Below, piece after piece: positions 5,103 to 25,715 of a DNA stretch of 64,000 bases (positions within the stretch are counted from its first letter, which is position 1; every line of letters starts with the position of its first letter). The DNA lies in NCBI GenBank assembly GCA_041392805.1, contig JAWKLJ010000001.1:4843101-4907100 (forward strand), given 5' to 3'. Made by a program: the position numbers and the translations under genes. This DNA is from Saprospiraceae bacterium (lineage in GTDB: Bacteria > Bacteroidota > Bacteroidia > Chitinophagales > Saprospiraceae). The notes under the pieces are model-generated. The model made no database searches and was not told the DNA's origin. It saw only the letters and a list, made by a program, of their open reading frames with translations.

Positions 5103-8000
5103 ATGACTTTAAAAAATAGAAGTATGTACAACAGACTTTTACTTAGCTTTATCCTGGTTGGCCTTTCCTTTTTTGCAAATGCTCAAATATTAGATACGGA
5201 CAACTATAGGACCTACGATGGGTCCTTTAATAATTTAAACCAAACCGATTGGGGAGCCGCAGGTAGCAATCTTTTGCGCCTGGTACCTGCCACTTTTGCT
5301 GATGGCATTAGTACGCCCACAGGCGAAAATAGGCCCAATCCGAGAACGATAAGCAATACCTTGTTTTCTCAAGAGAATCCCATAAATGATCCACTCAATT
5401 TGAGCGATTTTTGTTGGGTATTCGGCCAATTTATTGACCACGATTTGAGCATCACACCTGATGGGGCAGAACCTGCCTTCATTAAAGTCCCAACGGGTGA
5501 TCCCCATTTTGATCCGCTCTTTCAAGGCACAGCAGTGATCCCTATGCACCGTAGTGCATACGATCATCTGAGTGGTATAGGACCTGATAATCCGCGACAG
5601 CATCCCAATCTCATTACTGCCTTTATTGATGGGTCTGGTGTATATGGCTCTGATGAGCAACGTGCCAATTGGCTTCGAACTTTTACGGGAGGTAAGTTAA
5701 AAGTATCAACGGGTAATTTACTGCCTTTTAATACGGTGGATGGAGAATTCACGAGTGAGTTGGACGTTAATGCACCAGTCATGGATAATCCCACCCATAT
5801 TAGTGAAAAAATGTATGTTGCTGGTGATGTCAGGGCAAATGAAAACCCTTTACTGTTATCTTTCCACACCTTATTTGTTCGGGAACATAATCGTCTTTGT
5901 GATCAATTGATCGTAAAGCATCCCAATTGGACAGATGAGGAATTATATCAATATGCCAGAAAATTGGTAGGAGGTCTAATTCAATCTATTGTATTTGACG
6001 AATGGTTGCCAGCAATGGGCGTTGACCTGCCTGCCTACCAAGGCTATAATGAAACGGTGAATCCTCAACTTTCGAATGTGTTTACTGCTGCTGCTTTTCG
6101 CTTGGGGCATACCCTTTTGAATAGCACCCTCCGAAGAATTGGCAACGATGGAGAAGTCATTCCACAAGGAAATCTAGCACTTCAGGACGCTTTTTTCAAC
6201 ATATATGTTTTTTTAGAAACAGGAGACATTGATCCATTTTTTAAGGGGATGGCCACTCAAATCCAACAAAATATGGATCCGAAGTTGATCAATGATGTGC
6301 GCAATTTTCTATTTGGCCCTCCAGGAGCGGGAGGATTGGATTTGGCAGCGATCAATATCAATAGAGGCCGCGAGCGGGGATTGCCTGATTTTAATGGCGT
6401 TAGAGCAGCTTTAGGCCTTACACCATACGCTTTTTTCCAACAGATTAATTCGGATGCAGGTGTCTTTACCAGGCTGCTTTCTATGTATGCCGATATCCAT
6501 AATATAGATCCTTGGGTTGGGATGTTGGCAGAAAAGCCGATGCCTGGTGCATTGTTTGGCCAAACGATTATGACCATCATGAAACATCACTTTACAAACC
6601 TGAGAGATGGGGATCGGTTTTATTATTGGGTAGATCCTTTACTGTCTGATGCGGATAGAAATTGGATTAAAACGACGACCCTCCATGATGTTATCATGAA
6701 TAATACTGGTATTATTTTGATGCAGAACAATGTCTTTTCTGCTATGCCACATAGTGAAATTTGTGCAAGTATGACCGCAGATGTAGAAGGGATCGTTAGA
6801 ACAGAGTCGGGAGCACCTATTGCTAATGTTGCGCTTCAGCTTGGTTTATCAGAGCAGGAAGGCCTGAATTTTACAACTTCAGAAGAAGGTGATTTTTATT
6901 TCACGGATTTGTTTTCTTGTCAGGTAGAACAACTTTCTATCCATAAAGAAGATGGATTAACCAATGGCGTGTCTACCATAGACCTCATTCTTATCCAAAA
7001 ACATATTCTTGGATTAGGTGCCTTGCCAACAGCCTATAAGATGATTGCAGCGGATATCGATAGAAATGGAACGATTTCTACTATTGATCTTATCTTTTTA
7101 CGGCGTGCTATATTAGGAATCGATCATACATTCCCTAATAATACATCTTGGCGTTTTATAGCGGCTGATTACAATTTCCAAAACCCATCAAATCCATTGA
7201 TGGAAGCTATTCCAGAAATATATGATTTTGCTAGTGTTCCATCAGGGGTGTTAGCCTTGGATTTCATTGGTGTTAAAGTAGGAGATGTGAATGAAAGTGC
7301 CAAGACTACCTTCCAATCAACAGGAGAAGAGGCTCCTATCGCTTTAATGATAAATACAAATGACCAAACGCTTGAATTGGGGGAAGTCGTCCGCGTTCCC
7401 TTCCGATTAGGTAGTACCCAATCAGCTATCATTGGGTACCAGTTTAGTGTTGGGTTTGACGTTTCTAGCCTGGATTTATTAGCTGTTGATCTAGGCGATG
7501 TAGATCTTGATTTGGAAGGAAATTTTGGGACATTCAAAGAAAAAGGATTGCTGACCACTAGCTGGAATGATGAAACAGGGATAAAAGAGGGGATGGATTT
7601 ATTTTATTTGACCTTCAGCGTTAAAAAAGCGGGCCAATTAAGGGATTTGGTTGCCATCAATAGTGCGCTGACCCCTGCTTTGGCCTATGATAATCAAATG
7701 GAGGGAATGCAAGTGGCTTTGCAATTTAGTGAACAAGAAAAAGCCAACCAACTTTTTCAAAACAGGCCAAACCCCTTTAAAGAAACGACTGACATACCAT
7801 TTTATATAGCTAATAGTGGCGAAGTGCATTTGCGCGTATTTGATGTGGCGGGTCGTATGTTGTACCAGCAATCTGCATTTATGGATGCAGGTGAGCACCA
7901 ATGGAGCCTTAGTCGAACAGATTTACCTGCAGAAGGTATATTAGTGTATCAATTAGAGGTGGAAGATGATATTCTTACACGCCGGATGGTACTTGATTAG
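5103..8000 (+). CDS. Secreted animal-type haem peroxidase fused to an Ig-like / dockerin-like / cohesin-like cassette and a T9SS C-terminal sorting domain
   Basis: Signal peptide (MYNRLLLSFILVGLSFFANAQ). Distal-His motif FGQFIDHDL and proximal motif HTLFVREHNRL of the peroxidase-cyclooxygenase superfamily. Dockerin-like Ca-binding pair (...ADIDRNGTISTIDLIFLRRAILGI). Cohesin-like domain (GYQFSVGFDVSSLDLL). T9SS sorting domain (QNRPNPFKETTDIPFYIANSGEVHLRVFDVAGRMLYQQ). The ORF track starts at 4989; I placed the start at the Met at 5103 that precedes the signal peptide. Confidence 0.85.
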   Translation: MTLKNRSMYNRLLLSFILVGLSFFANAQILDTDNYRTYDGSFNNLNQTDWGAAGSNLLRLVPATFADGISTPTGENRPNPRTISNTLFSQENPINDPLNLSDFCWVFGQFIDHDLSITPDGAEPAFIKVPTGDPHFDPLFQGTAVIPMHRSAYDHLSGIGPDNPRQHPNLITAFIDGSGVYGSDEQRANWLRTFTGGKLKVSTGNLLPFNTVDGEFTSELDVNAPVMDNPTHISEKMYVAGDVRANENPLLLSFHTLFVREHNRLCDQLIVKHPNWTDEELYQYARKLVGGLIQSIVFDEWLPAMGVDLPAYQGYNETVNPQLSNVFTAAAFRLGHTLLNSTLRRIGNDGEVIPQGNLALQDAFFNIYVFLETGDIDPFFKGMATQIQQNMDPKLINDVRNFLFGPPGAGGLDLAAININRGRERGLPDFNGVRAALGLTPYAFFQQINSDAGVFTRLLSMYADIHNIDPWVGMLAEKPMPGALFGQTIMTIMKHHFTNLRDGDRFYYWVDPLLSDADRNWIKTTTLHDVIMNNTGIILMQNNVFSAMPHSEICASMTADVEGIVRTESGAPIANVALQLGLSEQEGLNFTTSEEGDFYFTDLFSCQVEQLSIHKEDGLTNGVSTIDLILIQKHILGLGALPTAYKMIAADIDRNGTISTIDLIFLRRAILGIDHTFPNNTSWRFIAADYNFQNPSNPLMEAIPEIYDFASVPSGVLALDFIGVKVGDVNESAKTTFQSTGEEAPIALMINTNDQTLELGEVVRVPFRLGSTQSAIIGYQFSVGFDVSSLDLLAVDLGDVDLDLEGNFGTFKEKGLLTTSWNDETGIKEGMDLFYLTFSVKKAGQLRDLVAINSALTPALAYDNQMEGMQVALQFSEQEKANQLFQNRPNPFKETTDIPFYIANSGEVHLRVFDVAGRMLYQQSAFMDAGEHQWSLSRTDLPAEGILVYQLEVEDDILTRRMVLD

Positions 8001-8397: not shown

Positions 8398-9075
8398 ATG
8401 CAAATAATCAAAACCTTACTTGCGGACGACCACTACATTTTTATTGAAGGGCTGAAAACCGTATTAAATGAGGCCTTACAATATCAGATCAAAGTTATAG
8501 ATGTTGCTCGTAGTGGAGAAGAACTTATCCAAAAAGTAAAATCGGCAAGAGCTGACTTGGTCATCACAGGCCTAAATTTATCTGGTAAAGATGGCCTGGA
8601 TGTCATTGAGGTGGTGCGTCAAAGTAAGAATCCCATTAAGGTATTAGTACTCAGTGCCTATGATGATCCGAAGATCGTCAAAACCGCTTTTAAATTAGGT
8701 GCTGATGGATATATACTGAAATGCCAGCCTTTGGTCGAGTTGTACCAAGCAATACACGAAATTTTAATGGGGAATACCTACGTCGGAAAAGGAATCCATT
8801 TAAATGGCACGAATGGTAGCGGCCATGGTAGCCATGGAATTCACCAAGCTGTTTTTGATTTTGAAGATCGTTTTATCAAGAAATACAACCTGACTAAACG
8901 GGAGTTGGAGATTCTGGGCTTGATTAGCCAGGCACTAAACAATAAGGAGATAGCAAAAGAGCTATACATTAGTGACCAAACGGTGGGTGTTCATCGCAAA
9001 AATATTATGCGGAAGCTTGGGGTGAGCAATACGGCAGGTTTGATTAAGTTGGCCTATGACTATAGTTTGGTGTGA
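8398..9075 (+). CDS. LuxR/NarL-family response regulator (receiver plus LuxR helix-turn-helix); receiver appears to lack the phospho-acceptor Asp
   Basis: N-terminal receiver domain (LLADDH acidic pocket, GADGYILK lysine). C-terminal LuxR-type helix-turn-helix (LTKRELEILGLISQALNNKEIAKELYISDQTVGVHRKNIMRKLGV). The position aligned to the NarL phospho-Asp reads LVITG instead of LILLD. Confidence 0.85.
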   Translation: MQIIKTLLADDHYIFIEGLKTVLNEALQYQIKVIDVARSGEELIQKVKSARADLVITGLNLSGKDGLDVIEVVRQSKNPIKVLVLSAYDDPKIVKTAFKLGADGYILKCQPLVELYQAIHEILMGNTYVGKGIHLNGTNGSGHGSHGIHQAVFDFEDRFIKKYNLTKRELEILGLISQALNNKEIAKELYISDQTVGVHRKNIMRKLGVSNTAGLIKLAYDYSLV

Positions 9076-9756
9076 GGCCATAGCCTGCCTATAGAGGAAG
9101 GGTTGGAAAGTATTTTTGGCTAGTTTAATATGTTTTTCTTTAAGATACATCCAGATGCAAGTATTTTTTTTTGCTTTATATCATGCTGGTAATCAGACTT
9201 TTTAGCACACGGCGTAAAATAAATCTCAAAAATACCCCTTTTAGGGTATGAAGTAACCAGTTTTAAGTTTTATATTTGTATCGTCTTAGAAAGGACACGC
9301 TTCTTGTAAGTTTGACGACAATATACTTGAGAGATAGATTAAAACACATACCGAAAGTTTCGTTTGAAATGACTTATTCACATAGTAATGAGGAAGAGTT
9401 TTAAAAACTTATGATTAAAATTTTGGTATTTATATTTTTTATGTGTTACATTTGTGCTAGTAATTTTGACAAAATCAATCCCATGACTAAAAATTTACAC
9501 TCCTCAAATTACCCTTCATTTTCTATTTTTCCAGTTAGCATATCATTGTTCATCCCTATATCACATTAAGGAGTTTTCGCTATGATTTTATTCAAACACT
9601 AAGGTTTTGGATGAATCATTTTTGTCATGTGGACTAATCCCAATACCAAAGCTATCCTCCCTGCAAAACGATGTAGGGGTTTATTTGACAATTTTATTTT
9701 TAAGATTCGTTTCTAGTATAATTCGACCTAATTCTTGGATGTATCGGTTTTGATTT

Positions 9757-9930
9757 ACGACGACGACACAAACTTTTATCCGATCTCCAAATGAATATAT
9801 ATTAAGAAAAGACATTAAAAAATGTGCACTTTTCAGACGACGACAAACAGTATTTAGCACATTTTTTTAAAGATATAGTCTTAAATTATTGTGAATCTGC
9901 TTTACTTTTCAGCGCGTAGACGACGACACT
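9757..9930. repeat. Three direct copies of ACGACGACA(C/A) with conserved flanks, about 81 bp apart, in the gene-free region upstream of the giant adhesin gene
   Basis: Copies at about 9757-9770, 9836-9849 and 9918-9929. Flanks are related (aaaaaatgtgcacttttcagacgacgacaaac and gtatttagcacatttttttaaag). They lie in a 945-bp AT-rich, ORF-free interval (9076-10020). Confidence 0.5.
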
Positions 9931-10020
9931 TTTGCTGTCAAGGTAAAGTTCACAATGATTTGGACTGGTGTATCATAATCTTATTTCTTAACCTAATTCG
10001 TTTACGCAAATTGTAATCTT

Positions 10021-13000
10021 ATGGAAAAAACGAATTTTACATTTGTTCATCCTACACAATGGATGAAACTAGCCTTTTTGCTAGTTGCTACTTTGTGTTT
10101 TGGATTGACTCCAATTACTGGACAAGGGCAAGACGATGCCGATCCAGTTCCTGGCGAAGACATTTGTCTTCCTCCCGCTCTTACAATCACTGGCTGTGAT
10201 GAAGACGGTGCAACCCTAACTTGGTACTCCGTAAATGGAGATCACCATGAAGGTATCAATGACCACTGCTGGTTAATCAAAGTAACTGGTGCAGGACCTG
10301 TACATTTCGCCGGTGGTGGGATCATAGGTGTTGTTGTTGATTACTTAGGCGCTCAATTGCACAATGCTATCGTAGAAGTTGAAATCTGCGAAGGCGATGA
10401 TGCACTTACCATTGCTCCTGTTCCTGGCCATCCTGGCATTTATTCTGTTACTTACGATTTGAGCAGCAACCTCATTCAGCCTGGTACGGCTTATTGGGCT
10501 GCTGTTGCTGAAGTTTGTAACCGTATGCCTGTTTTAGGTAACAATTCTTCTTGGAACTTCCAAAGGGATCTTTTAGTGAACTACCACATCGGTGGACCTT
10601 TCGACACGGATGAAATTTTCGACGAATACCCTTGGGATGGTTACGAAGGTTACTTCAAAACTAAAGACTCTCAATTCACTGCTTCTAGTGATTACGAAAA
10701 AACCTCTTGTCCTGAAGAAACTAATGGATATGTAGAAGATGGTTGTATCGTAGTGACTATCGGCGATGGCGAATCTTGCTGGGGTTTGTACAACATCACT
10801 ATTGATGGTGATTTGATGCTTGTTGGTGGCGAAGAAGCTGTAGGTGCAGGAGAGTATACTTTCTGCGGTTACGGTGTAGGCCCACACGATGTAGACGTTG
10901 AACTCGTAAACGGTTGCAACCCTCCTACCAGAAGATTGGAAGCAGATGTAGTTATTCCTAATGGAATGGACATGGTTTCTCCTATTATTACAGTAGCTGA
11001 CTTCTTTGCTGGTACTTTGCTAGCTAACGAAGGTGGTGATGTAATTGCACTTGGTGACATGTTGATTCCTGAAGGTTCTTGCTCTATGAAGAGCTACTTC
11101 ATCGTTACTGGTGTTGACAACTGTGATGGCGAAATCTGTGATGGTGATGCAGTTACTGCTGAAGCTACAGACGGACCTGCTAACGTTGATCCAGGTACCC
11201 AAGTACAAGTTTATAACCAAGACCAGTATGTTGATACAGGTGAAGGTATTGTTCATTTGCAAGGTTGCGAATGGGTAGTTGAAATCAACTGGTCAGTTGG
11301 CGCATCTGAAGTAACTGTTTGTTTGGATGATGCAGAAGAAGCTGGTTTGTCAGCTCCTACTTGTGTAACAATTACTGCTAATGTGATTGATGCACAGGAT
11401 GCTCTTATTGATGCTCCTGCTGTAAATTATACAATTCCTGAATGCCAGGATCAAGTAACTGTTTTTTACAGCTTCCAAATCGATGATGGTTGTGATAACG
11501 ACATCGATTTTGATCAAGTATTTTTTGATGCATTTGCTTTTGGCGGTATCTCTTTAGATGCAATAACTGAGCTTAGCATTGAAAATGGTTACGCAGAAGT
11601 TATTTTAACTTTCGGAACAGATGGATTCCAAAATGATTTTATTGATGATGGTTTACTTCTTATTACCTATATTGATGATTTTGGTAATGTATATACTGCC
11701 CAACCATTCTTCAATTTATACAACTCCACTATTAACGCTGATCCAGTAATCACAACAACTGGTAACGCTTTCACAGCTTTAGCTTGTGAAGACGGTGGTG
11801 AAGTAGTACTAGGTGTTACTGTTACAGATGATTGCGAAGATGTATTGGACGACGTTAAAATCTCTGGTGATGGTTCTGGTGACCTTACAGCTGCTCCAGC
11901 AGTAAGAAACGGAACATCTGCATACTTCGAATTTTCTGGTACTTTGGCAGCTGACGAATATAGCTTTACATTCAAGTACCCAGGTGCTGGTGATGTAACA
12001 GTAGCCGTTGTAGTTTCTCAGGAAGATAACCACGCTCCTGGTGTGGATATGCCTGGTAACACAACTTTCACTATTCCATCTTGCCAAGATGATGTAACAG
12101 CAGTATGGTCTGTTCAAATTACCGATGATTGTGACGAAGCAATTGATCTTAGCGAAGTATGTATCACTGTAGGTGGTGGTGCTTGTATCGCTATTCCAAG
12201 TGCTAATGCTACTGTTGTTTCTACAGGAGAAGGCATGGCATTGATCGAATTGAACTACGATCTTACGCTTGCAGCTAATGGTGCAGCGTTTGCCGTTTCT
12301 TATACAGATGGTAGCGGTGCTACTACATCTAAAAGTTCTACTGTAAGTGTAAATGGTACGCCTGATGTTATCAAGCCAGTTATCGTTTACCCAACAGAAG
12401 CTATTACAAAAGTATTGGATCCATGTGGACCAAATACAACTGATATCAAATTCTCTGTATCTGCGATTGACAACTGTGCTGGTAATGTAGCTGTTTCTGT
12501 ATCAGCTCCTGGCCGTATAGCTATGTCTTCTGTACCTGAAGGTGATGCTGACAAGTGGACAATTACTTATGCTGCTAGCGCAACACCATACCAGATTACA
12601 TTGTCCGCTAATGATGGACACGGCAACACGACTACACAAACCATGTGGGTAAGTGTAACGCAAGCTCCTGCTCCTCCAGTGAACTTGGCTTGCCACACAG
12701 GCTTGCAAGCTCCTGTTGGTTACCAATGTGAAGTAGAACTAACTCCTGCTATGGTATTGGAAGGTTCTATGGGCTGTTTGACTCCTGCTGACATCGAAAT
12801 CGTTGTTAAAGGAAAACAAAGAGGCGCTGTATGGGCTAACTATACAGAAGGTACTGGTTTGCACCAATTTGATGTTTACATCAATGGCAATTACTTCTGT
12901 ACTGGTAATATTACTACTTATGACAACATTCCTCCATCTATCGAGTGCCCAGCTGATGATCCAGCTGATTACGTTTGCACTGATATTGATGAGTTGTTGG

Positions 13001-16000
13001 GTACATTAGAGTACACAGGTGCACCAAGTATTGGTGATAACTGTTCTGGTGCTACTTACGACTGGTACGAGGAAGTATTATATGGTGAAGACGAAGCTTG
13101 TGATGATTTACGAATTCGTCGTGTATTCACTGTAACTGACGGTGCTGGATTGAAAGCATCTTGCACACAGTATATCACTGTTCGCAAACCTACCTTGGCT
13201 GATGTTACTGGACCAGATGAATTGATTGAATTGAGCTGTGATGATGAATTCGAATATGATGCAAATGGCCACCCATCTCCACCAGAGACAGGCGGATACC
13301 CATATGTTACTACTATTTTCGATGATCACAACTTGGCACAAACATACTGCAACCTTGCAGCTACTTACTCAGATTCTGACTTGATCGAAATTTGCGAAGA
13401 TAGCTACAAATTTATCCGTACTTGGACAGTACTTGACTGGTGTCACCCAGGTCAGTATACAACCTATACTCAGTTGATCAAAGTAGGAGACTTTGACGAT
13501 CCAATCGTTACTGCTCCAACTGCTGACTACGACTGGGATGGTCACTTAGACATCTTGTCTTACTCTACAGGTCCATTCGATTGCTCTGGTGCATTCGAAG
13601 TACCAATGCCTGGTGTTACCGACAACTGCTCTGGCTGGACAGTAACCACTGAAATTCTGAAAGACGGAACAACTCCTGTATTGACTATCGCTCCAGGTGC
13701 CAACCGTTTCGTAAGTGGTATTCCAATGGGTTGCCATGCTTTCCGTTACTGGGTAACTGATGGTTGTGGAAACCAAACTGACATCACTGTACCTTTCATG
13801 GTAGAAGACAAAGTAGCTCCTGTAGCTGTTTGTGATGATGACTTAAACATCTCTATCGGTGGCCAAGGCTACGCTAGAGTATACGCTACTGATATCGACG
13901 AAGGATCTTGGGATAACTGTGGACCAATCCGCGTTGAAGTACGTCGTTTGTACAACGAAGATGCTGATTGTAACCCAATTACTTCTTACTTCAGCGAATG
14001 GGGTGAGTATGTAGACTTCAGCTGCTGCGATATCGGAGATGCTGTAAGAATCGAATTGCAAGTATGGGATGACCGCAACGGTGACGGTATTCCAGGTAAC
14101 ACAATTACTATCGTTAACTGTGATGGTCAGGAAGTTGTTGTAAAAGACAACAGCAACACTTGCTGGTTAGACGTAACAGTAGAGGATAAATTGAATCCAT
14201 ACTGTGTACCTCCTCACAACAAGACCATCACTTGTGATGCATTACCATACGACTTCGATCCTAGTGACATCGAATTGTTAGAGGACCTATTCGGTCAGGC
14301 TGACTACGCAGACAACTGCCCAGGTGCTTCTGTTGAAGAAAATGCACCAGTTATTACAATTGACGATTGTGGAACAGGAACGATCCTACGTTCTTTCACT
14401 GCTACAGATGCAGTAGGATTAACTTCTACTAACAGCTGCCAGCAGTTGATTACCATTACAGAAGTACACAACTACGAAATCCGCTTCCCAGCTGATGATT
14501 CAGCTGATTGTGGTGTAGCTGATCCTGATACGATTACTTTCAACGAGATTGGTTGTGACCTATTGGCCGTAAGTGTAGAAGATGAATTCTTCTCTGCTTC
14601 TGGCGATGAGTGCTACAAAATCTTCCGTACTTACCGAGTGATTAACTGGTGTGAGTATGATGGTGAAGCACCTCCAGTAGTTGTAAGCCGTGACGAAGAT
14701 TGTGATGGCAAACCTGGTGATGAAGCAGTTTGGGTACTACGTAGACCAAACGGTGCTGTTTACTTCGACCGTGATAACGTTGAGACTAACAACAACCCAC
14801 TTGCAGGTACTAAAGGCACATCTTGCGATGGCTTGACGAACCCTAAAGGTTACTGGATTGACAGCTACATTGATGCTAACGCAACACGTGATCCTATCAC
14901 TGGTCAGTTGGATAACAACTACACCAACGATAACATCCGTAACATTGATACAAGAGGATACTGGCAGTATACACAGGTCATCAAAGTTTACGACAGTGTT
15001 GACCCAGTTATTACTGTTGAGGCATACGATGCATTCCCATCTTTGGATAATGTAAACTGTGACGGATTAGTAACTATCAACTTCAAAGTTGAAGATGAGT
15101 GTACAAGAGAAGAAGGCTTGAAATTTGTTTGGTTGGATGCATTTATCAATGATGCTGACGGTGACGGAAACTTCACTCAAGCAGAATTTGTAAAAGATCA
15201 TGATGTAACAGCTCAAATCACTGGCGATGCTTCTGGTTACACTTACTCTGCAGAATTGCCACAAGGTACACACGCCTTATTGATCAAAGGATCAGATGGT
15301 TGTGGAAATGAGACAGTTGACCTGATTATCTTCGAAGTAGTAGATACTAAAGCACCAGCACCAGTTTGTATCAATGGTTTGGCAGTAGAATTAATGCCAA
15401 CTGAGCCAGGTACTGACGCTGATGGCGATGGTGACGAAGACAGAGCTGCAATGGCTATTTGGGCAAATGACTTTATCGCTAGCCCAATCTATGACTGTAA
15501 CGGTCAAGGCCCAGCAGTAGATGCAAACGGTAACGAATTGGTTACTGCTTACTCTATCAACTTGGTAGGCGCAGAACCTAACCGTGACTCTACAGGTATC
15601 GTATTAACTTGTGATAACGACGAAACAACTATCGTGGAAATCCACGCTTGGGATGAAGTTGGAAATCATGACTACTGCGAAACTTACGTTTTAGTACAAG
15701 ATTTGATGAACAGATGTGAAGGTGGTGAAGATGGTGCCATTGCTGGTAACATCAAAACTGAAGGTGGAGAAGGTGTTGCTGACGTTGAAGTTTCTTTAAG
15801 TGGCTTCATGAATTCAATTTACACTACTCAAAACGACGGTTACTACGTATTCCATAACCTTCCAGTGAACGACTACTCTGTAGCTCCTCAATTGGATGTG
15901 AACTACTTGAACGGTGTATCTACTTTTGACCTTGTATTGGTAAGCAAACACATCTTGGGCATCCAATTATTGGATTCTCCATACAAAATGATTGCTGCTG

Positions 16001-16941
16001 ACGCAAACAACAGTAAGAGTATCACTACACTTGATATGATCGAAACTCGTCGTAACATCTTGGGTATTACGAATGGCTTTACTAACAATACAAGCTGGCG
16101 CTTTATTGATGCTAACTATGTATTCCCATTCCCTAACAACCCATGGTATGAGCAAGTTCCTGAAATTAAATCTGTTAATGACCTTGTAGGTGAAATAGAG
16201 CTTAATTTCGTAGCTGTCAAAATATCTGATGTTAACGCAAGTGCACGACCAAACGGTTTAGTGAGCATCGACGATCGTAGCAATGGTTCTTTCGCATTCA
16301 ATGTTGAAGATATCGCTATGGTTGCTGGTAACACTTACAATGTTGACTTCACTGCTAAAGATATCGCTGCTATCGCAGGTTACCAAGGTACTTTCACTTT
16401 CGGTGAAGCTATCGAAATGGTAGATATCGTATACGGTGTCGCTAAAGAAGGAAACTTCGGTACTAACTTTGTTAACGAAGGAATGTTAACTACATCTTTC
16501 AACGACGAAGCATCTGCTGATGACGTTCTGTTTACTTTAGTAGTTCGCGCTAACCAAGACGCTTCATTGAGCGAACACCTTGGCTTGAGCTCTAGAGTTA
16601 CACCTTCTGAAGCTTACAACAACGACGGTGACAAACTTGATCTAGCGATCAACTTTAGCACAGGAAAAGTACAGTCTGTTGCTTTCGAATTGTACCAAAA
16701 CCAGCCAAACCCATTCCAGGGTGAAACTGTTATCGGTTACAACTTGCCAGAAGCAGCTCAAGTTACTTTCACTGTAAGTGATGTAGCTGGTAGAACACTC
16801 AGAACGATCCGCACTGAAGGTGCTAAAGGATATAACAATATCCTCATCAACAGCAAAGATCTTCCTGCAGCTGGTGTATTGTATTACACTGTTTCTACTG
16901 ACAATTACACTGCAACTAAGAAGATGATTATTGCTCAATAA
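10021..16941 (+). CDS. Giant (2306 aa) secreted HYR/Ig-repeat adhesin-like protein ending in an Ig-like / dockerin-like / cohesin-like cassette and a T9SS sorting domain
   Basis: Signal peptide (MKLAFLLVATLCFGLTPITGQG; alternative start at 10063). Many roughly 80-100-aa repeats ending in ...TVTD..G....C.Q.ITV / W.V.DWC-type HYR/Ig motifs. Strongly acidic, rich in Asp/Thr/Val. C-terminal dockerin-like pair (GVSTFDLVLVSKHILGI...ADANNSKSITTLDMIETRRNILGI), a cohesin-like domain, and a T9SS sorting domain (YQNQPNPFQGETVIGYNL...). Confidence 0.85.
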   Translation: MEKTNFTFVHPTQWMKLAFLLVATLCFGLTPITGQGQDDADPVPGEDICLPPALTITGCDEDGATLTWYSVNGDHHEGINDHCWLIKVTGAGPVHFAGGGIIGVVVDYLGAQLHNAIVEVEICEGDDALTIAPVPGHPGIYSVTYDLSSNLIQPGTAYWAAVAEVCNRMPVLGNNSSWNFQRDLLVNYHIGGPFDTDEIFDEYPWDGYEGYFKTKDSQFTASSDYEKTSCPEETNGYVEDGCIVVTIGDGESCWGLYNITIDGDLMLVGGEEAVGAGEYTFCGYGVGPHDVDVELVNGCNPPTRRLEADVVIPNGMDMVSPIITVADFFAGTLLANEGGDVIALGDMLIPEGSCSMKSYFIVTGVDNCDGEICDGDAVTAEATDGPANVDPGTQVQVYNQDQYVDTGEGIVHLQGCEWVVEINWSVGASEVTVCLDDAEEAGLSAPTCVTITANVIDAQDALIDAPAVNYTIPECQDQVTVFYSFQIDDGCDNDIDFDQVFFDAFAFGGISLDAITELSIENGYAEVILTFGTDGFQNDFIDDGLLLITYIDDFGNVYTAQPFFNLYNSTINADPVITTTGNAFTALACEDGGEVVLGVTVTDDCEDVLDDVKISGDGSGDLTAAPAVRNGTSAYFEFSGTLAADEYSFTFKYPGAGDVTVAVVVSQEDNHAPGVDMPGNTTFTIPSCQDDVTAVWSVQITDDCDEAIDLSEVCITVGGGACIAIPSANATVVSTGEGMALIELNYDLTLAANGAAFAVSYTDGSGATTSKSSTVSVNGTPDVIKPVIVYPTEAITKVLDPCGPNTTDIKFSVSAIDNCAGNVAVSVSAPGRIAMSSVPEGDADKWTITYAASATPYQITLSANDGHGNTTTQTMWVSVTQAPAPPVNLACHTGLQAPVGYQCEVELTPAMVLEGSMGCLTPADIEIVVKGKQRGAVWANYTEGTGLHQFDVYINGNYFCTGNITTYDNIPPSIECPADDPADYVCTDIDELLGTLEYTGAPSIGDNCSGATYDWYEEVLYGEDEACDDLRIRRVFTVTDGAGLKASCTQYITVRKPTLADVTGPDELIELSCDDEFEYDANGHPSPPETGGYPYVTTIFDDHNLAQTYCNLAATYSDSDLIEICEDSYKFIRTWTVLDWCHPGQYTTYTQLIKVGDFDDPIVTAPTADYDWDGHLDILSYSTGPFDCSGAFEVPMPGVTDNCSGWTVTTEILKDGTTPVLTIAPGANRFVSGIPMGCHAFRYWVTDGCGNQTDITVPFMVEDKVAPVAVCDDDLNISIGGQGYARVYATDIDEGSWDNCGPIRVEVRRLYNEDADCNPITSYFSEWGEYVDFSCCDIGDAVRIELQVWDDRNGDGIPGNTITIVNCDGQEVVVKDNSNTCWLDVTVEDKLNPYCVPPHNKTITCDALPYDFDPSDIELLEDLFGQADYADNCPGASVEENAPVITIDDCGTGTILRSFTATDAVGLTSTNSCQQLITITEVHNYEIRFPADDSADCGVADPDTITFNEIGCDLLAVSVEDEFFSASGDECYKIFRTYRVINWCEYDGEAPPVVVSRDEDCDGKPGDEAVWVLRRPNGAVYFDRDNVETNNNPLAGTKGTSCDGLTNPKGYWIDSYIDANATRDPITGQLDNNYTNDNIRNIDTRGYWQYTQVIKVYDSVDPVITVEAYDAFPSLDNVNCDGLVTINFKVEDECTREEGLKFVWLDAFINDADGDGNFTQAEFVKDHDVTAQITGDASGYTYSAELPQGTHALLIKGSDGCGNETVDLIIFEVVDTKAPAPVCINGLAVELMPTEPGTDADGDGDEDRAAMAIWANDFIASPIYDCNGQGPAVDANGNELVTAYSINLVGAEPNRDSTGIVLTCDNDETTIVEIHAWDEVGNHDYCETYVLVQDLMNRCEGGEDGAIAGNIKTEGGEGVADVEVSLSGFMNSIYTTQNDGYYVFHNLPVNDYSVAPQLDVNYLNGVSTFDLVLVSKHILGIQLLDSPYKMIAADANNSKSITTLDMIETRRNILGITNGFTNNTSWRFIDANYVFPFPNNPWYEQVPEIKSVNDLVGEIELNFVAVKISDVNASARPNGLVSIDDRSNGSFAFNVEDIAMVAGNTYNVDFTAKDIAAIAGYQGTFTFGEAIEMVDIVYGVAKEGNFGTNFVNEGMLTTSFNDEASADDVLFTLVVRANQDASLSEHLGLSSRVTPSEAYNNDGDKLDLAINFSTGKVQSVAFELYQNQPNPFQGETVIGYNLPEAAQVTFTVSDVAGRTLRTIRTEGAKGYNNILINSKDLPAAGVLYYTVSTDNYTATKKMIIAQ

Positions 16942-16964
16942 TCGTCCTTCGATGAAATACATTT

Positions 16965-16996
16965 GGAGTGGCCCTTTGGGTCACTCCATTTTTTTT
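16965..16996 (+). terminator. Rho-independent terminator (first of a tandem pair) after the giant adhesin gene
   Basis: ggagtggccctttgggtcactcc hairpin followed by atttttttt. Confidence 0.6.
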
Positions 16997-17000
16997 GTAA

Positions 17001-17038
17001 AATCACCAACTGTTCGCGGTGATTTTTATTTTTTTTTG
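17001..17038 (+). terminator. Rho-independent terminator (second of the tandem pair)
   Basis: atcaccaactgttcgcggtgat hairpin followed by a T-run (ttttatttttttttt). Confidence 0.6.
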
Positions 17039-17090
17039 TACCTTCGTTCTGAAAAAGAACAACATAAACCCTTGAGCATAATCCCATGAT

Positions 17091-17897
17091 ATGAAACATG
17101 CAACTGGAATACTTTTCCTGCTGTGCCTCCTTTCTCTATTTTGTATTGTTCCTGTCTCAGGTCAGGTCTCTATTTTTCTCACTGACGCTACGGTTCAACC
17201 TGGAGAAACCTTTACCGTTCCGGTAAAAGCGGCCAATTACCAATCTATTCTTAGTACCCAGTTTTTTATACGCTGGGACCCTACAGTACTTTCTTTTAAG
17301 AATGTGGTTGATCTACATCCACCATTTGACTTTGTAGATCACTTCGGAGCATTGTCGGCCCAAACACAAGGTACCTTAGCCTTCGCATGGTTTGACACTG
17401 GCTCTCTAAGTGGCATTAATATTGAAAATGATTCTTCTTTGTTTTCCATTGAATTCACCGCCGTAGGAAGTTATGGCGAATATTCAAAAATTGAATTTTA
17501 TGAAGATCCTTCAGATGCATCCACTATTACAGAAATAGTCGATACTTCCTATAAAGCTATTCCTTATGAAGTAACTGATGCTACGATCTCTTTGGGCGAG
17601 ACAGTAAACACTCTCTTTAATTCTGCGCCTGATAAAATATTGATAAAACCGTGTTACCCCAATCCTTTCACCCATCATACAACTTTAAATTTCAAACTTA
17701 CACAAGCAACAACCATTCATCTAAACATCTTAGATTTACAAGGAAAAACAGTTTTTGAGGAACAAAGGTATTTTGGTAGTGGCCAACATCAGCTGACATT
17801 AGAAAAGGACGTCTTTAGTCAGCCAGGTATTTATTTCTACCATCTTACCTCACCTTCTTTCAAGGTGACTCAAAGACTTGTGTTTTTAGAGCAATAA
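17091..17897 (+). CDS. Small secreted protein with a single cohesin-like domain and a T9SS sorting domain
   Basis: Signal peptide. Cohesin-like beta-sandwich signature (QFFIRWDPTVLSF...GTLAFAWFDTG...FSIEFTAVG). C-terminal sorting domain (KPCYPNPFTHHTTLNFKLTQATTIHLNILDLQGKTVFEE). Confidence 0.75.
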   Translation: MKHATGILFLLCLLSLFCIVPVSGQVSIFLTDATVQPGETFTVPVKAANYQSILSTQFFIRWDPTVLSFKNVVDLHPPFDFVDHFGALSAQTQGTLAFAWFDTGSLSGINIENDSSLFSIEFTAVGSYGEYSKIEFYEDPSDASTITEIVDTSYKAIPYEVTDATISLGETVNTLFNSAPDKILIKPCYPNPFTHHTTLNFKLTQATTIHLNILDLQGKTVFEEQRYFGSGQHQLTLEKDVFSQPGIYFYHLTSPSFKVTQRLVFLEQ

Positions 17898-17928
17898 ATT
17901 ATATTCCCTAACATCCCAAATTCCGAAC

Positions 17929-20900
17929 ATGATGGATAGGATTTTTACACGCCTATTTGCCGGGCTCCTTTTGCTTATTCCAATAAGCATTTCGGCAAAC
18001 CCTACCATTGGTAGGACTAATGATCTTGAAGGATTTACGATAACTTTAGAGGATTTTGATGCAAATCAAGGCGATCAAATCTGCTTAGACGCTAGCGTCA
18101 GCGGATTTATGAATATCCTTGGTATGCAATTCTCTATTAATTATGACCCTGCAATTCTTCAATTTAACAACATTTCCAATACGAACCTTACGGGCCTAAG
18201 CCCTAACTCCTTTGGAAACCCCTCTGCGGGCAACATTACCATGTCATGGTCTGATCCTAATGCAGTGGGCCTTACGCTCGCTGATGGCACGGTAGTTTTT
18301 GAAGTTTGCTTCACCGTAGTGGGCACTGCCGGTACTACGGTCACTTTTTCCGACACGCCTACGCCAACTGAAATTGTTGACGGTACCTTAACTGTTATTG
18401 GTTTCACTGGCCAAGAATCAGCGGTAACGGTTAATGGCAATTCACCAGGTGGTGGTGGCGGCGGCGGCGGTGGTAACACCGGAATTACCCTGACAATCGA
18501 AGACATAGCAGCCAATCAGGGCGACCAGGTCTGTCTTGATGTGACGGCTTCTAATTTTACGAATATTCTGAGCTTACAAAATTCCATTAGCTATGACCCC
18601 GCAGTTTTACAGTTTAGCTCCATTTCAAACACTAACCTTGCAGGCTTAAGTGCTAACTCGTTTGGAAACCCTTCGGCAGGCAAAATTACGATGTCCTGGG
18701 CTGATCCGAATAACACTGGGCTGTCAGTGGCAGATGGGACCGTCCTTTTTGAAATCTGTTTTAATGTTATTGGAACAACATCTACAACTGTTGTCGATTT
18801 TTCTAATACACCAACACCTATAAAGGTAGTAAACGGCGCTCAGACGGAAATAGGGCTTACCAGCAATTCTGGAACAGTTACGGTTACTGGAAATAATGGT
18901 GGCGGCGGTGGCGGTGGCGGAAATGAAAATCCGAATTTTACAGGATTTGGATTGGCGATTGAAGATGTCAGTGCTAACCAAGGGGATCAGATTTGCTTAG
19001 ATGTGGTTGCCTACAATTTTAATAGTATCCTTGGTATGCAATATACCATTAGTTATGACCAGTCCAAATTGCAGTTCAGCTCTATTGCAAATACAAATCT
19101 TGCCGGTTTAAGTGCCAATTCTTTTGGCAATCCCACACCGGGTAAAATCACCTTGTCTTGGTCTGATCCGAATGCTGTAGGGGTTTCTGTAGCAGATGGG
19201 ACGGTTATTTATGAGGTGTGTTTTAATGTCTTGGGAACCACTTCTACAACGGTAACTTTTACAAGTTCTCCAACGATCATCGAAATTATTGACTCGGGCT
19301 TAAATGAAATTAGCTTTGAGAAAAATGATGGTGTTGTCACGCTGAATGGCGGTGGCGGCGGTGGTGGCGGTGGTGGTAACACTGGACCCTCTTTCACAGG
19401 ATTCGGTGTTGTCATAGAAGATACTGCTGCAAATCAAGGCGACAAAGTTTGCCTGGATGTAACGGCGTATGATTTTGTAAATATATTGGGAACACAGTTT
19501 ACCATTAATTATGATCCCGGTCGATTACAATTTGTAGAAATTGCAAATCCCAATTTGGTAGGGCTTTCTTCCGGCGCCTTTGGCAACCCTTCTCCAGGAA
19601 ATCTAACTTTTTCTTGGTCTGATCCCAATGCTGTAGGTGTTACAGTACCTGATGAAACGGTTATTTTCCAAATCTGTTTTAATGTTTTGGGTAATAATAC
19701 GAGCACAACGGTCAGTATTTCTGGTACACCTACAGGTATTGAAATCATTGATAGTGGATTAAATGAAGTTCCGTTCAACTATGATAGTGGTACGGTTACC
19801 ATTAGCGACAATGGTTCGGGACCGGGTTTTGAGGGGTTTGGAATTATTGTAGGGGATAAAAGCTTACAAGAAGGAGATTCTTTTTGTGTGCCAGTTAGTG
19901 TACAAGAATTTGTAGGAATACTTGGTATGCAGTTTACCATTTCCTATAATGCCACAGAATTGCAACTAGACCAAATAACGGGATTTAACCTTAATGGTTT
20001 GGCCGCAGCCTCTTTTAATTCTAGTACGCCTGGTACTATCCGATTTACATGGGATGATCCTAACGCAACTGGAGTGACTTTAAATCCTGCCGACGATCCG
20101 AATACGATATTCGAATTGTGCTTCACCGTTATTGGAACCAATAGTTCTCAGATTTGTATTGTAGATACACCTGTGGCAGTTGAAATCACAGCTTCCGATC
20201 TAACGGTTATTACGCCAACCCTCATCTGCGGTAATATTCTGGTAGGAGAAGATCCTCCACCAACCGTTACCGCTACCATTACAGGCGTTAGTTGCCCGGG
20301 AGAAAATAATGGATCTATTGCATTACAAGTGAGTGGTGTAGGACCTAACTACAGCTACCAATGGAGTATTCCTGGCCTAGGAAATGCCAATACAGCAAGT
20401 GGACTTTCTGCAGGAAATGTAACCGTTACGGTCACCGATAATGGGACCAACCTGCAAACCATAGAAACATTTACGGTGCCCAGTCCTGCTGCTATGAACA
20501 TTACCCCTACGATAAAGCATGCAAGTTGCTCAGATGCTACAGATGGTAGTATCAGCCTTGCGGTTACTGGGGGAACTGGGCCATTTACCTACAATTGGTC
20601 TCCTACAGGGACGAATACAAGTCAAAATACGGGGCTTGCATCTGGTGTTTATAATGTAACGGTTACAGATAGGAATTCCTGTGTTACAACTGCTGGGCCT
20701 TTTATCGTTGAAAGCCCTTCTGCGATTAACATTAGCGTTATTTCTGTACAAAATGTGCAATGTGCGAGCGACCAAACGGGCGCCATTGCTATTGCAGTAA
20801 ATGGAGGTACACCACCATACAGTATTAATTGGAATGGCAACCTTCCTGATAATACAACAACGCAAAGTGGATTATCTGCCGGCAGCTATTCCGTCGTGGT

Positions 20901-23495: not shown

Positions 23496-24422
23496 ATGAA
23501 AAAAATAACTTTACTCCTATCATTTTTAGTTTTTACGACAGCACTTGTCGCTCAATATGAAGCCATTTTCAACCATTATAACCTTAGCAATGGTAGCCGT
23601 AACCTCATTAACCCAGCTGCTGCGGGGTTCGATGCAGTTTCTCAGCTCCAATTTAATCTGAGAGCTCAATGGACCGGCTTTGAAGATGCACCTAAAACTT
23701 ATGGTGCACTTTTTAATGCTCCTATTGGAAAGGCCTTTGGCTTGGGCCTAGGTATTTACTCAGAACAAGCGGCCCAATTGGCTAATTTGCGAATTTTTCT
23801 TAACTACGCTTTTCGCTTTCAGCTTAGCGAAGACTTTAAGGTCTCCGCTGGTTTTTCAACTGAATTTCAGCAAATGACCTTGAATAGCGATGTGCTGAAC
23901 AAACCGCTATTACAATTGGGCGATGACTTGGTTGATGAATTCCTCAGTGGTAAAGGTATTTTTGATGCTGCAATAGGGTTTTATGGTACTTTTCGTGAAA
24001 ATACCTTTGGTGGCTTGAGTCTAAATAACCTCGTCCGAAACAAATTGGATGAAATGGTTGCTTCTCCACAACAATCTACCTCCATCTTTCAATATTATAC
24101 CTTTATTCTAGGGCATAAATTTGACTTGTACGACCTCAATTTTAGCTTGGAGCCATCACTGGCAATTCGTCAGATCTTTAGCACCCCAGCATCAATGGTT
24201 GACATCAATTTGAAAGCGGGTTTCTTAGAAGATCAACTCATTGCAGGACTCTCTTATCGAACAGGGACATCTATTGCAGCGCTTGGTATTCTGCTCGGAA
24301 CCAAGTTGTCTGGCTTTAACCTATATTATTCTTATGATGTCTCTTTCGCACGTTTCCAGGACTATAGCGTAGGTTCTCATGAAGTGACAGTGGCTTTTAT
24401 CTTTGAGGGTAAGGATCAATAA
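23496..24422 (+). CDS. PorP/SprF-family T9SS outer-membrane protein
   Basis: 308 aa with a signal peptide and beta-barrel-like alternating hydrophobic pattern. It sits immediately downstream of a protein with a type-B sorting domain, which is the usual arrangement for SprB/SprF-like pairs. Confidence 0.75.
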   Translation: MKKITLLLSFLVFTTALVAQYEAIFNHYNLSNGSRNLINPAAAGFDAVSQLQFNLRAQWTGFEDAPKTYGALFNAPIGKAFGLGLGIYSEQAAQLANLRIFLNYAFRFQLSEDFKVSAGFSTEFQQMTLNSDVLNKPLLQLGDDLVDEFLSGKGIFDAAIGFYGTFRENTFGGLSLNNLVRNKLDEMVASPQQSTSIFQYYTFILGHKFDLYDLNFSLEPSLAIRQIFSTPASMVDINLKAGFLEDQLIAGLSYRTGTSIAALGILLGTKLSGFNLYYSYDVSFARFQDYSVGSHEVTVAFIFEGKDQ

Positions 24423-24460
24423 ACTACTAAGATGTCCTTTTAACAATTGGTTTTTGGGAT

Positions 24461-24496
24461 GACCTCTCTCCTGTTCGGGGAGGGGTCGCTTGTTTT
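24461..24496 (+). terminator. Rho-independent terminator after the PorP/SprF gene (copy 1 of a duplicated terminator module)
   Basis: gacctctctcctgttcggggaggggtc hairpin (with U-G wobble pairs) followed by gcttgtttt. Preceded by the conserved lead-in ggtttttgggatg. Confidence 0.55.
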
Positions 24497-25148
24497 ATAA
24501 TTTCTTTGCCTTTTCAAAATACCTTTTTTAGGGTATTTTTAGCATTGAAATAAACCGTATATTTGTTAGGTATATAAGAAACAAATTATAATCCTTGGTC
24601 TTAAATAGCTTTATGCTATCTTTCATCTCTTAGCTTCAGCTTGCCTCCTACGTGCTTGCCTTCCCTAAGAATCGAAGCGATCCTGGATTTCCTTCTAAAG
24701 AGCTTTGAGCGTCTTCCCAAAAAAAACAGTAATATTTTAGAGAATGAGTGTGTAAAGCTTTTTTCACATTATCATCTCTAATGGCACACCCTAGCATTGT
24801 TGTCTTTTGATGCCAATGTCTTTTATGTGGTGTGATGCTTACCTTTTGTATGATCATAGACCCTTGAGGTAAGGAGGTGAAGCTCCAAATAGCGTCCAAT
24901 CAATGGTAGGCAGCGTTTGGCGTTTCGGTTAGTTACTCAAGGTTTTTGATCTGATTTTCTAGGGAATACATATTTTAAAAAAATCCTTAGATTTTATTTT
25001 ATACGAATGAAACCTTAAAGAAGATAGTCCGTAATACTCTATATAACTTTTATGAAACCTCAAAGAAAATTATAATTAAGGCGATTGGATTGTATGTGAT
25101 TCACACAAGAACCGTTTTCAAGTGTATACTTAAATCGGTTTTTGGGAT

Positions 25149-25191
25149 GGCCTCTCTTCTATGCAGACAGAAGGGGGGCTTTTTTTATTTT
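25149..25191 (+). terminator. Rho-independent terminator (copy 2 of the duplicated module) inside a gene-free 1.3-kb interval
   Basis: ggcctctcttctatgcagacagaaggggggc hairpin followed by tttttttatttt. Same ggtttttgggatg lead-in as copy 1. Confidence 0.55.
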
Positions 25192-25715
25192 CCTAAGGTT
25201 TTAATTCTCCCATACTTGCTCTTAGACAGCAGACCCTGTGCTGAAAATCTTTAAAAAATTATACTCCTATTTTAACTCAATGCTTCTTCACATAAAGCTA
25301 TAAGCCTAGATATAATAGATTTAATTCAAGTGTTTTGTGGTTTAAGTAATTGATATATAGTGTTTTGTGGTTTTGTGTAATTATTTTTCAGGAAAGGCAT
25401 AAAAAATTGGCACGGTATTTTCAATACCTCAGTAGACCGATAAAGGTGCTAATAGAAATTAGCCTAGGAGAAGGCCAGTTGTCTGGGCAACTTTAACACC
25501 TGGTCAAAAGCTTACCTAACAGTATCAGACCCACCTCAATAATGGATGGATCAAGCAGTGCTTTGTAGTGCAAAGCCTACAATAGCCAGTGGTATGCTCA
25601 TTTTTAAACACAAACATTAACGCAACACTTTACCTCGCTTTGGCAGCTAACATGCATCGCCAAGGCCTGCTAAAACTATGCCCTTAAACTTCTTAATCAT
25701 TTAAACTACATCAAC

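Follow-up and report, generated by a model that had tools for sequence, protein, structure and literature searches.

Why do a haem peroxidase and two large surface proteins, encoded within one gene cluster of a Saprospiraceae bacterium, share a C-terminal tail, and what might that tail do? The window analysed here, 64,000 nucleotides of DNA on a 5.76-Mb contig from a Saprospiraceae metagenome-assembled genome (MAG), contains three forward-strand open reading frames (ORFs) that end in a related cassette: gene A (965 amino acids), gene B (2306) and gene C (1319), in a cluster annotated as MEZ5041742–748. We find that each cassette joins a β-sandwich, with a dockerin nested inside it, to a cohesin and to a type A C-terminal sorting domain (CTD) of the secretion system known as type IX (T9SS), an arrangement that probably serves to export surface proteins and couple them to one another. 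The three genes are listed below; L numbers denote loci among the 80 that we fetched from species-representative genomes, all scan results referring to genomes other than the window's own.

5103 to 8000, + strand: gene A; signal peptide, animal-type haem peroxidase domain (∼5205–6737) and cassette A; MEZ5041742.1 'peroxidase family protein', by exact-sequence look-up
10021 to 16941, + strand: gene B; surface protein of 2306 residues with C-terminal cassette B; MEZ5041744.1; orthologue in L036
25716 to 29675, + strand: gene C; HYR-domain surface protein of 1319 residues with cassette C; HYR 74 bits, HYR_4C 36 bits; orthologues in L001–L006 and L013

A C-terminal cassette with a nested dockerin

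An initial annotation of the DNA had placed collinear cassettes at the ends of these three genes, and family hidden Markov models (HMMs), tblastn and a MAFFT alignment agreed in finding them there. The HMM limits are 6774–7994 (A), 15730–16935 (B) and 28428–29669 (C). Aligned end to end with MAFFT, the last ∼410–415 residues are collinear and 36–43% identical, and tblastn within the window matched A to C at E 1e-72, A to B at 3e-64 and B to C at 1e-100, over 413–438 amino acids. Pfam and TIGR04183 bore out the proposed order of an immunoglobulin (Ig)/CarbopepD-like domain, a dockerin, a cohesin and a T9SS domain, the Pfam parts being a half-length CarboxypepD_reg-like match, Dockerin_1, Cohesin and Por_Secre_tail. 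The order is thus a β-sandwich with nested dockerin (together termed IgDoc), a linker of 17–18 residues, the cohesin, a linker of ∼14 residues and the type A CTD:

6774 to 7301, + strand: cassette A, sandwich with nested dockerin (dockerin 6960–7133; post-dockerin strands and GDVNES motif 7134–7301)
7341 to 7736, + strand: cassette A, cohesin; Pfam Cohesin 28.1 bits, family HMM 115.8 bits
7758 to 7994, + strand: cassette A, type A T9SS sorting domain; TIGR04183 25.0 bits, cassette-CTD HMM 90.9–92 bits
15733 to 16245, + strand: cassette B, sandwich with nested dockerin (dockerin 15901–16080); igdoc HMM 237.3 bits
16282 to 16665, + strand: cassette B, cohesin; family HMM 144.2 bits, no Pfam Cohesin match at E<0.01
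16696 to 16935, + strand: cassette B, type A T9SS sorting domain; TIGR04183 35.1 bits
28434 to 28949, + strand: cassette C, sandwich with nested dockerin (dockerin 28605–28781)
28995 to 29396, + strand: cassette C, cohesin; Pfam Cohesin 33.9 bits
29430 to 29669, + strand: cassette C, type A T9SS sorting domain; TIGR04183 40.2 bits

Cassette A scored 202.5 bits on the igdoc family HMM, 88.9 on doc and 80.1 on postdoc. Both motifs previously quoted for the cassettes are present in all three translations, the SWRF-type motif as NTSWRFIAADYNF, NTSWRFIDANYVF and NKSWRFVDADYRF and the GDVN-type motif as FIGVKVGDVNES, FVAVKISDVNAS and FIGVKVGDVNQS. The dockerin (53–63% identity) and the post-dockerin segment (50–52%) are the best conserved parts; the cohesin (32–34%), the CTD (31–35%) and the first half of the sandwich (23–36%) are far lower, and the likeness therefore extends well beyond the sorting domain, as had been claimed. 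A chance or low-complexity origin of this likeness is excluded by E values of 1e-64 to 1e-100.

Scored as fragments against Pfam Dockerin_1 (PF00404; cut-off 22.9 bits), cassettes C (26.2 bits) and A (25.9 bits) lay above the threshold and cassette B (21.4 bits) just below it; in the whole-protein scan, A scored 21.0 and C 24.4 bits. For cassette C, an AlphaFold2 (AF2) model that drew on 63 homologues had a predicted local distance difference test score (pLDDT) of 93.9 and a predicted template modelling score (pTM) of 0.77, and a model of its first 194 residues had values of 93.4 and 0.88. In the cassette model, five strands (residues 12–65) precede three helices (76–121), which are followed by three to four further strands (135–177), a low-confidence linker, the cohesin (201–333), a second linker and the CTD (354–423). 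The insert has the three-helix, duplicated F-hand fold of a type I dockerin and the sandwich a seven-strand, prealbumin-like fold. Structure model and covariation both showed that the dockerin is not a free-standing terminal module but is nested in a transthyretin-like sandwich, the last strands of which come after it. CarboxypepD_reg (PF13620) matched at 18–27 bits, against a cut-off of 32.3, over profile positions 2–53 of 82 only; deleting the dockerin in silico left the match at 2–53 of 82, not extended across the junction.

Covariation was determined by mean-field direct-coupling analysis (DCA) of 446 non-identical cassettes. Strong pairs occurred at 3.9 per 1000 between the pre- and post-dockerin segments and at 4.9 per 1000 between the dockerin and the post-dockerin segment, compared with 0.2–1.2 per 1000 in all other inter-domain classes, an enrichment that backs the nested arrangement independently of the model. 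Moreover, the strongest long-range pairs, I82–V181 (rank 5) and S106–N182 (rank 24), place the VK(V/I)GDVNxS motif against helix 1 and the second calcium loop of the dockerin. That loop is canonical (D102-x-N/D104-x-S106-G-x-I-x-x-x-D113), with D102 and D113 invariant. T76, T111 and R118 are nearly invariant in the family; in the numbering of Clostridium thermocellum dockerins we take T76 and T111 to be the classical recognition position 10, and R118 to be position 17. The motif K-(V/I)-G-D-V-N-x-S (cassette residues 177–184; window 7277–7300, 16221–16244 and 28926–28949) is invariant and follows the last sandwich strand. By sequence it resembles the opening of a third F-hand loop (D-x-N-x-S), and it could complete or add a calcium site.

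Against the Pfam Cohesin (PF00963) cut-off of 24.1 bits, the cohesins of A and C were recognized directly and that of B through homology only, by the family HMM and alignment throughout. The modelled domain is a nine-stranded jelly-roll (residues 201–333; pLDDT ∼95), and Foldseek matched type I cohesins in the PDB with template modelling (TM) scores of 0.6–0.68 (2vn5_C, 0.64; 5nrm_A, 0.68; 3ul4_A, 0.66). Searching the PDB with the whole model returned per-domain matches only and nothing on the domain arrangement. All three CTDs exceed the TIGR04183 cut-off (23 bits) at the extreme C-terminus and belong to a distinct subtype, which starts QNxPNPF and travels with the IgDoc–cohesin unit. Two of the modules thus belong to known families, that of the cohesin fold and that of type A CTDs of the T9SS. 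Literature searches on the cassette, on dockerins with a T9SS and on Saprospiraceae gave no description of the cassette, of a dockerin nested in this way or of the locus, and NCBIfam has no model for the IgDoc–cohesin unit. The cassette explains the ∼410 C-terminal residues shared by thousands of hypothetical proteins named 'T9SS type A sorting domain-containing' or 'cohesin domain-containing', and its domain boundaries are now given for a new family model.

Distribution, conserved neighbours and proposed function

In species-representative genomes, at least 581 stretches that encode the cassette turned up, almost all of them from Saprospiraceae, Lewinellaceae, Haliscomenobacter or Phaeodactylibacter, and a profile search of 1.84 billion representatives gave 10,414 clusters at E≤1e-30. 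Among the loci, L060 and L069 belong to the cultivable Lewinella cohaerens DSM 23179. In the best 150 clusters (proteins of 545–7182 amino acids) the best-matched stretch ended within ∼5 residues of the C-terminus in 144 and ∼85–540 residues before the protein end in the other six (P0139, P0145, P0181, P0218, P0223 and P0144). The architecture IgDoc–cohesin–CTD was found in 345 of 376 database proteins; IgDoc was followed directly by a cohesin in the same proportion, and in 100 of ∼105 ORFs of the fetched loci. Variants have one to four extra cohesins, a tandem IgDoc–cohesin, IgDoc–CTD without a cohesin, or two IgDoc units with neither cohesin nor CTD. Five Saprospiraceae proteins of 560–715 amino acids (P0300, P0376, P0298, P0315 and P0331), one of which NCBI names 'carboxypeptidase regulatory-like domain-containing protein', consist of two units, each a HYR-like end domain plus a nested-dockerin sandwich, and lack cohesin and sorting domain; they are candidate soluble bivalent cross-linkers. 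Two cassette proteins are assigned to bins outside Saprospiraceae, L016 (to a Cyclobacteriaceae MAG) and P0337 (to 'Cyanothece sp. SIO1E1'); mis-binning or rare lateral transfer may lie behind this.

The cassette was also sought on other cargo across related genomes, as the initial annotation had advised, and HYR, HYR_4C, PKD, Big_13 and peroxidase domains were found; in nearly all members the cargo is adhesin-like, not enzymatic. The module may be called portable in that it serves two or more unrelated cargo classes, but the term overstates the case, since 89 of the 91 N-terminal bodies of cassette proteins in the 80 loci belong to a single HYR-like family.

The genes around A, B and C are conserved as well. 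At least ten genomes across Saprospiraceae keep the cluster, at 30–50% amino-acid identity, in the order LuxR-type response regulator, cassette protein, 268-residue cohesin–CTD protein, multi-cohesin SprB-repeat protein with a type B CTD, PorP/SprF protein and further cassette proteins. Besides genes A to C, the window encodes these members:

8398 to 9075, + strand: LuxR-type response regulator (Response_reg and GerE), conserved upstream neighbour of the cluster
17091 to 17897, + strand: stand-alone cohesin plus type A CTD protein, 268 amino acids; Cohesin 45.7 bits, Por_Secre_tail 36.1 bits
17929 to 23400, + strand: scaffoldin-like protein, 1823 amino acids; five cohesins (18034–20127), eight SprB repeats, type B CTD (CHU_C)
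23496 to 24422, + strand: PorP/SprF-family outer-membrane protein; PorP_SprF 153 bits; directly downstream of ORF 17929–23400

The regulator is syntenic in L011, L015, L021, L026, L036 and L045, and the cohesin–CTD protein in at least ten loci. In the ORF at 17929–23400, Pfam recognized Cohesin (190 bits in five stretches), SprB (148 bits) and CHU_C (76 bits); its score on TIGR04131 was 30.5 bits, below the cut-off of 35. By its cohesins this protein is a multi-cohesin scaffoldin, and by its SprB repeats, type B CTD and adjoining PorP/SprF gene it is a SprB-like type B CTD protein. Poly-Gly linkers of 7–10 glycines each lie between its five cohesins, which are distal to the SprB repeats, and L036 has three tandem multi-cohesin ORFs (12324–21206). 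The PorP/SprF protein is presumably the anchor of the upstream protein, by analogy with type B CTD proteins that bind PorP-like proteins (PMC9143113). All three dockerins of the window lie within cassettes; of its nine cohesins, five belong to the scaffoldin-like protein, three to the cassettes and one to the stand-alone protein. The window has no core T9SS genes, the PorP/SprF gene being the only T9SS context in the cluster.

The reading we favour is that the cassette is probably an abundant Saprospiraceae-lineage module for T9SS export, surface anchoring and calcium-dependent dockerin–cohesin binding, which would clip surface proteins together. The CTD would take the protein through the secretion system and would then be cleaved, and the new C-terminus, just past the cohesin, would be fixed to the outer-membrane surface, by analogy with Porphyromonas gingivalis, for which covalent attachment of type A CTD cargo to anionic lipopolysaccharide is established (PMC9143113). 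Displayed near the membrane, the dockerin and cohesin would pair with one another and with those proteins of the system that have only cohesins or only dockerins, and giant HYR-type adhesins and the haem peroxidase would in this way be clipped into a surface assembly. The conserved neighbours would add docking sites, in the form of the cohesin–CTD protein and the five-cohesin, SprB-like protein with its PorP/SprF anchor. An intermolecular network of this kind is favoured by the architectures with unpaired modules and by the conserved cohesin-only neighbours, and would have a precedent in Ruminococcus bromii Amy4, the dockerin of which was shown experimentally to recognize its own cohesin, predicting multimers (PMC4611034). 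Of the 'delivery and docking' role suggested initially, delivery is sound, given the type A T9SS CTD, and docking is what the folds would predict.

Several observations weigh against this reading. Many type A CTD cargos of other Bacteroidota are released, not anchored. The first calcium loop is non-canonical: it has D/N67, N/D69 and an invariant D78, but a Leu at position 5, and its G-to-D12 spacing is one residue short. Cassette B lies at or below the Pfam threshold for both Dockerin_1 and Cohesin, and the cargo is not carbohydrate-active. In the DCA of the 446 cassettes, dockerin–cohesin covariation (0.72 per 1000) was not above the inter-domain background. The best dockerin–cohesin pairs, R118–N276, R118–S274, H123–L312 and T76–S274, fall on what we take to be the classical recognition positions 10, 17 and 22 and rest on a small Q118 clade; with pair density at background and this dependence on a small clade, we discounted them as evidence of an interface. 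Finally, the fixed linker length and the high pTM of the whole cassette agree with an intramolecular complex no less well than with a network.

Such a complex, which we regard as possible but distinctly the less likely reading, would have the nested dockerin bind the cohesin of its own chain and form a rigid, calcium-stabilised pedestal that spaces the cargo and supports it mechanically above the outer membrane, without any network. The linker between IgDoc and cohesin is 17–18 residues long in 406 of 536 cassettes despite an unconserved sequence (0–9% identity, A versus B or C), and the near-constant succession of IgDoc and cohesin described above is consistent with a pairing within the chain. 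A cassette pTM of 0.77, for four units joined by low-confidence linkers, would imply confident inter-domain packing as judged from the pTM alone, although a single-chain AF2 model is blind to the difference between cis, swapped and trans contacts. The putative interface residues T76, R118, S274, W275 and E316 are nearly invariant across paralogues, and so show no divergence of specificity. The background level of dockerin–cohesin covariation sits no better with a clasped chain, however, and modules without a partner on the same chain speak against it: double IgDoc proteins without a cohesin, IgDoc–CTD proteins, the one to four extra cohesins, the stand-alone cohesin–CTD protein and the five-cohesin protein.

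More doubtful again is an extension of the network, in which thousands of Saprospiraceae surface proteins would carry beside their membrane anchor a self-complementary, calcium-dependent 'plug and socket', each dockerin binding the cohesins of neighbours on the same or an adjacent cell. If so, the result would be a cross-linked coat of adhesins and enzymes, or homophilic cell–cell junctions on a cadherin-like principle, and a basis for filament, sheath or floc formation and for the capture of prey or particles in Saprospiraceae; the five-cohesin locus would then give a Gram-negative phylum its own T9SS-based, non-cellulolytic equivalent of the cellulosome.

We consider it unlikely that the two folds are present without being partners, the dockerin-like insert acting as a calcium-dependent stabiliser of the sandwich, the cohesin-like domain acting as a spacer or binding polysaccharide or a prey surface, and the cassette as a whole serving as stalk and secretion signal. 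The lack of a dockerin–cohesin covariation signal, the degenerate first F-hand and the adhesin-like, non-enzymatic cargo of nearly all members are consistent with this, as are the many non-cellulosomal cohesin- or dockerin-like modules for which no partner is known (Peer et al. 2009, cited by PMC6487960). However, conservation along the cassette is highest in the dockerin and post-dockerin segments (50–63%), the classical recognition residues T76, T111 and R118 hardly vary, the two folds persist together, and the conserved locus has extra genes that encode cohesins only.

Descent of the three cassettes

The initial annotation had attributed the three copies to old domain shuffling onto unrelated N-terminal regions rather than to recent duplication. 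The copies are indeed related as protein and diverged as DNA: pairwise protein identities of 36–43% contrast with a single 36-nt stretch of DNA similarity (89%), in the VKVGDVN-coding region. Because the DNA match is limited to these 36 nt, the copies are old. Recent duplication or gene conversion among the three is excluded, there being no further DNA similarity.

Shuffling accounts for gene A. Its body matched An_peroxidase (PF03098) at 496.5 bits over profile positions 1–530 of 530, contains GQFIDHD and FRLGH, which we take to be the distal and proximal His motifs of a haem peroxidase, and is unrelated to the bodies of B and C. At the same position in L045, upstream of the regulator and a cassette protein, lies a 42%-identical peroxidase, the domain of which (ending PHE) runs straight into a plain sorting domain, without a cassette. 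The CTD of that protein scored 13.5 bits on the cassette-CTD HMM, compared with 92 bits for gene A, from which it follows that the cassette, its own CTD subtype included, was exchanged as one unit. The peroxidase is thus a genuine graft, in which a whole cassette stands in place of a plain CTD; peroxidase plus cassette also occurs in two metagenomic proteins, P0089 and P0348. The start of gene A varies with the source: the mechanical ORF begins at TTG 4989, a start at ATG 5103 leads into a signal-peptide-like sequence (965 amino acids, found in a Logan assembly), and the NCBI start lies seven codons past ATG 5103 and gives 958 amino acids.

Genes B and C have another history. Their bodies are 30% identical over 705 amino acids (BLASTP, E 2e-52), and more segments align in the same order as far as the cassette; gene C is essentially homologous to the C-terminal ∼1400 residues of B, in which homology begins at about residue 888. 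Each has orthologues in other Saprospiraceae in which body (42–49%) and cassette (44–57%) are both closest to their own type. Since the bodies are homologous and the orthologues already carry body and cassette, B and C are ancient whole-gene paralogues that, on these comparisons, inherited the cassette vertically after an ancient gene duplication; among the three proteins, a domain swap gave the cassette to the peroxidase only. Independent ancient grafting onto three unrelated N-terminal regions, which the absence of DNA similarity and the unrelated peroxidase with its cassette-free orthologue might suggest, is refuted for B and C by their homologous bodies and, with one body family so predominant and B and C orthologues elsewhere already carrying their own cassette types, is most improbable overall.

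Known systems and the surrounding DNA

Among the closest known systems are the type I cohesin–dockerin pairs of clostridial cellulosomes (C. thermocellum Xyn10B dockerin with CipA cohesin 2, PDB 1OHZ/2CCL; also 4FL4). The cassette differs in that its host is Gram-negative with a T9SS, its dockerin is nested instead of forming a free C-terminal module, dockerin and cohesin share one polypeptide, the first calcium loop is atypical, and the cargo consists of HYR adhesins and a peroxidase, not carbohydrate-active enzymes (CAZymes); no carbohydrate-binding module (CBM), SLH domain or sortase anchor was found. Domain library scans detected no CBM or glycoside hydrolase domain in any cluster protein, and neither dockerin-bearing CAZymes nor a scaffoldin CBM is present. 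Without CAZyme cargo and CBM, the system is not a cellulosome.

Like the cassette, Amy4 of the R. bromii amylosome unites cargo, cohesin and dockerin on one polypeptide, but it is a single Firmicute protein with GH13 cargo, sortase-type anchoring through Sca2 and a cohesin followed by a C-terminal dockerin without nesting, whereas the cassette is a family of thousands. Cohesins and dockerins also occur apart from cellulose degradation, sometimes within one protein and with no physiological role assigned, in Archaeoglobus fulgidus and in further non-cellulosomal proteins (Bayer 1999; Peer 2009; Voronov-Goldman 2011; cited by PMC6487960 and PMC4611034); these belong to another lineage and lack a T9SS and a nested architecture. 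In the XDoc units of type II/III systems (CipA XDoc, 3KCP/5G5D) the X-module and dockerin are consecutive, whereas here the dockerin interrupts the sandwich. A C-terminal TIGR04183 domain after Ig-like domains is shared with type A CTD cargo such as the P. gingivalis gingipains and other TIGR04183 proteins, from which the cassette CTD is set apart by its subtype and its coupling to the IgDoc–cohesin unit. In Candidatus Stygibacter (Cloacimonadota), a cohesin–dockerin assembly was likewise deduced bioinformatically and the cohesin scaffold has a T9SS-type CTD, but there it is hydrolases that bear the dockerins, the cohesins belong to a separate scaffoldin with a CBM, and no combined cassette is described (PMC8542988). 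The five-cohesin protein resembles SprB of Flavobacterium johnsoniae in its SprB repeats, type B CTD and adjacent PorP/SprF gene (SprB binds SprF, according to PMC9143113) and differs in its N-terminal cohesins and much shorter length.

Cohesin–dockerin assembly is known almost wholly from Gram-positive cellulosomes; here both folds occur in one conserved tail with a T9SS signal, in more than 10,000 sequence clusters, and Saprospiraceae are abundant in activated sludge and on marine particles. If the modules bind as their folds suggest, Bacteroidota would have in this tail a general means of assembling giant adhesins and an extracellular peroxidase at the surface, and the tail would offer a compact, self-contained display tag for T9SS hosts.

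Two long gaps separate genes of the cluster. Between the PorP/SprF gene and gene C, 1.3 kb (24423–25715) has no ORF longer than 83 amino acids and no annotated gene, MEZ5041747 and MEZ5041748 being consecutive; this stretch may serve as a long leader or regulatory region. The other gap, ∼950 bp (9076–10020) from the LuxR-type regulator to gene B, has no ORF of 150 amino acids or more. An Rfam scan of the window, both gaps included, gave no match. A further T9SS type A CTD protein, of 405 amino acids and without another recognizable domain, is encoded on the − strand at 62151–63368. G+C content is ∼0.41 over the first 35 kb, where the surface-protein cluster lies, and climbs to 0.47–0.50 in the last 16 kb, which hold ordinary metabolic genes (rhamnosidase, molybdopterin oxidoreductase, acyl-CoA dehydrogenase and a Mg-chelatase-like ATPase). 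At 49167–51977 this Bacteroidota genome encodes a Planctomycete-type PSCyt1/PSCyt2/PSD1 (DUF1549/DUF1553) cytochrome-domain protein.

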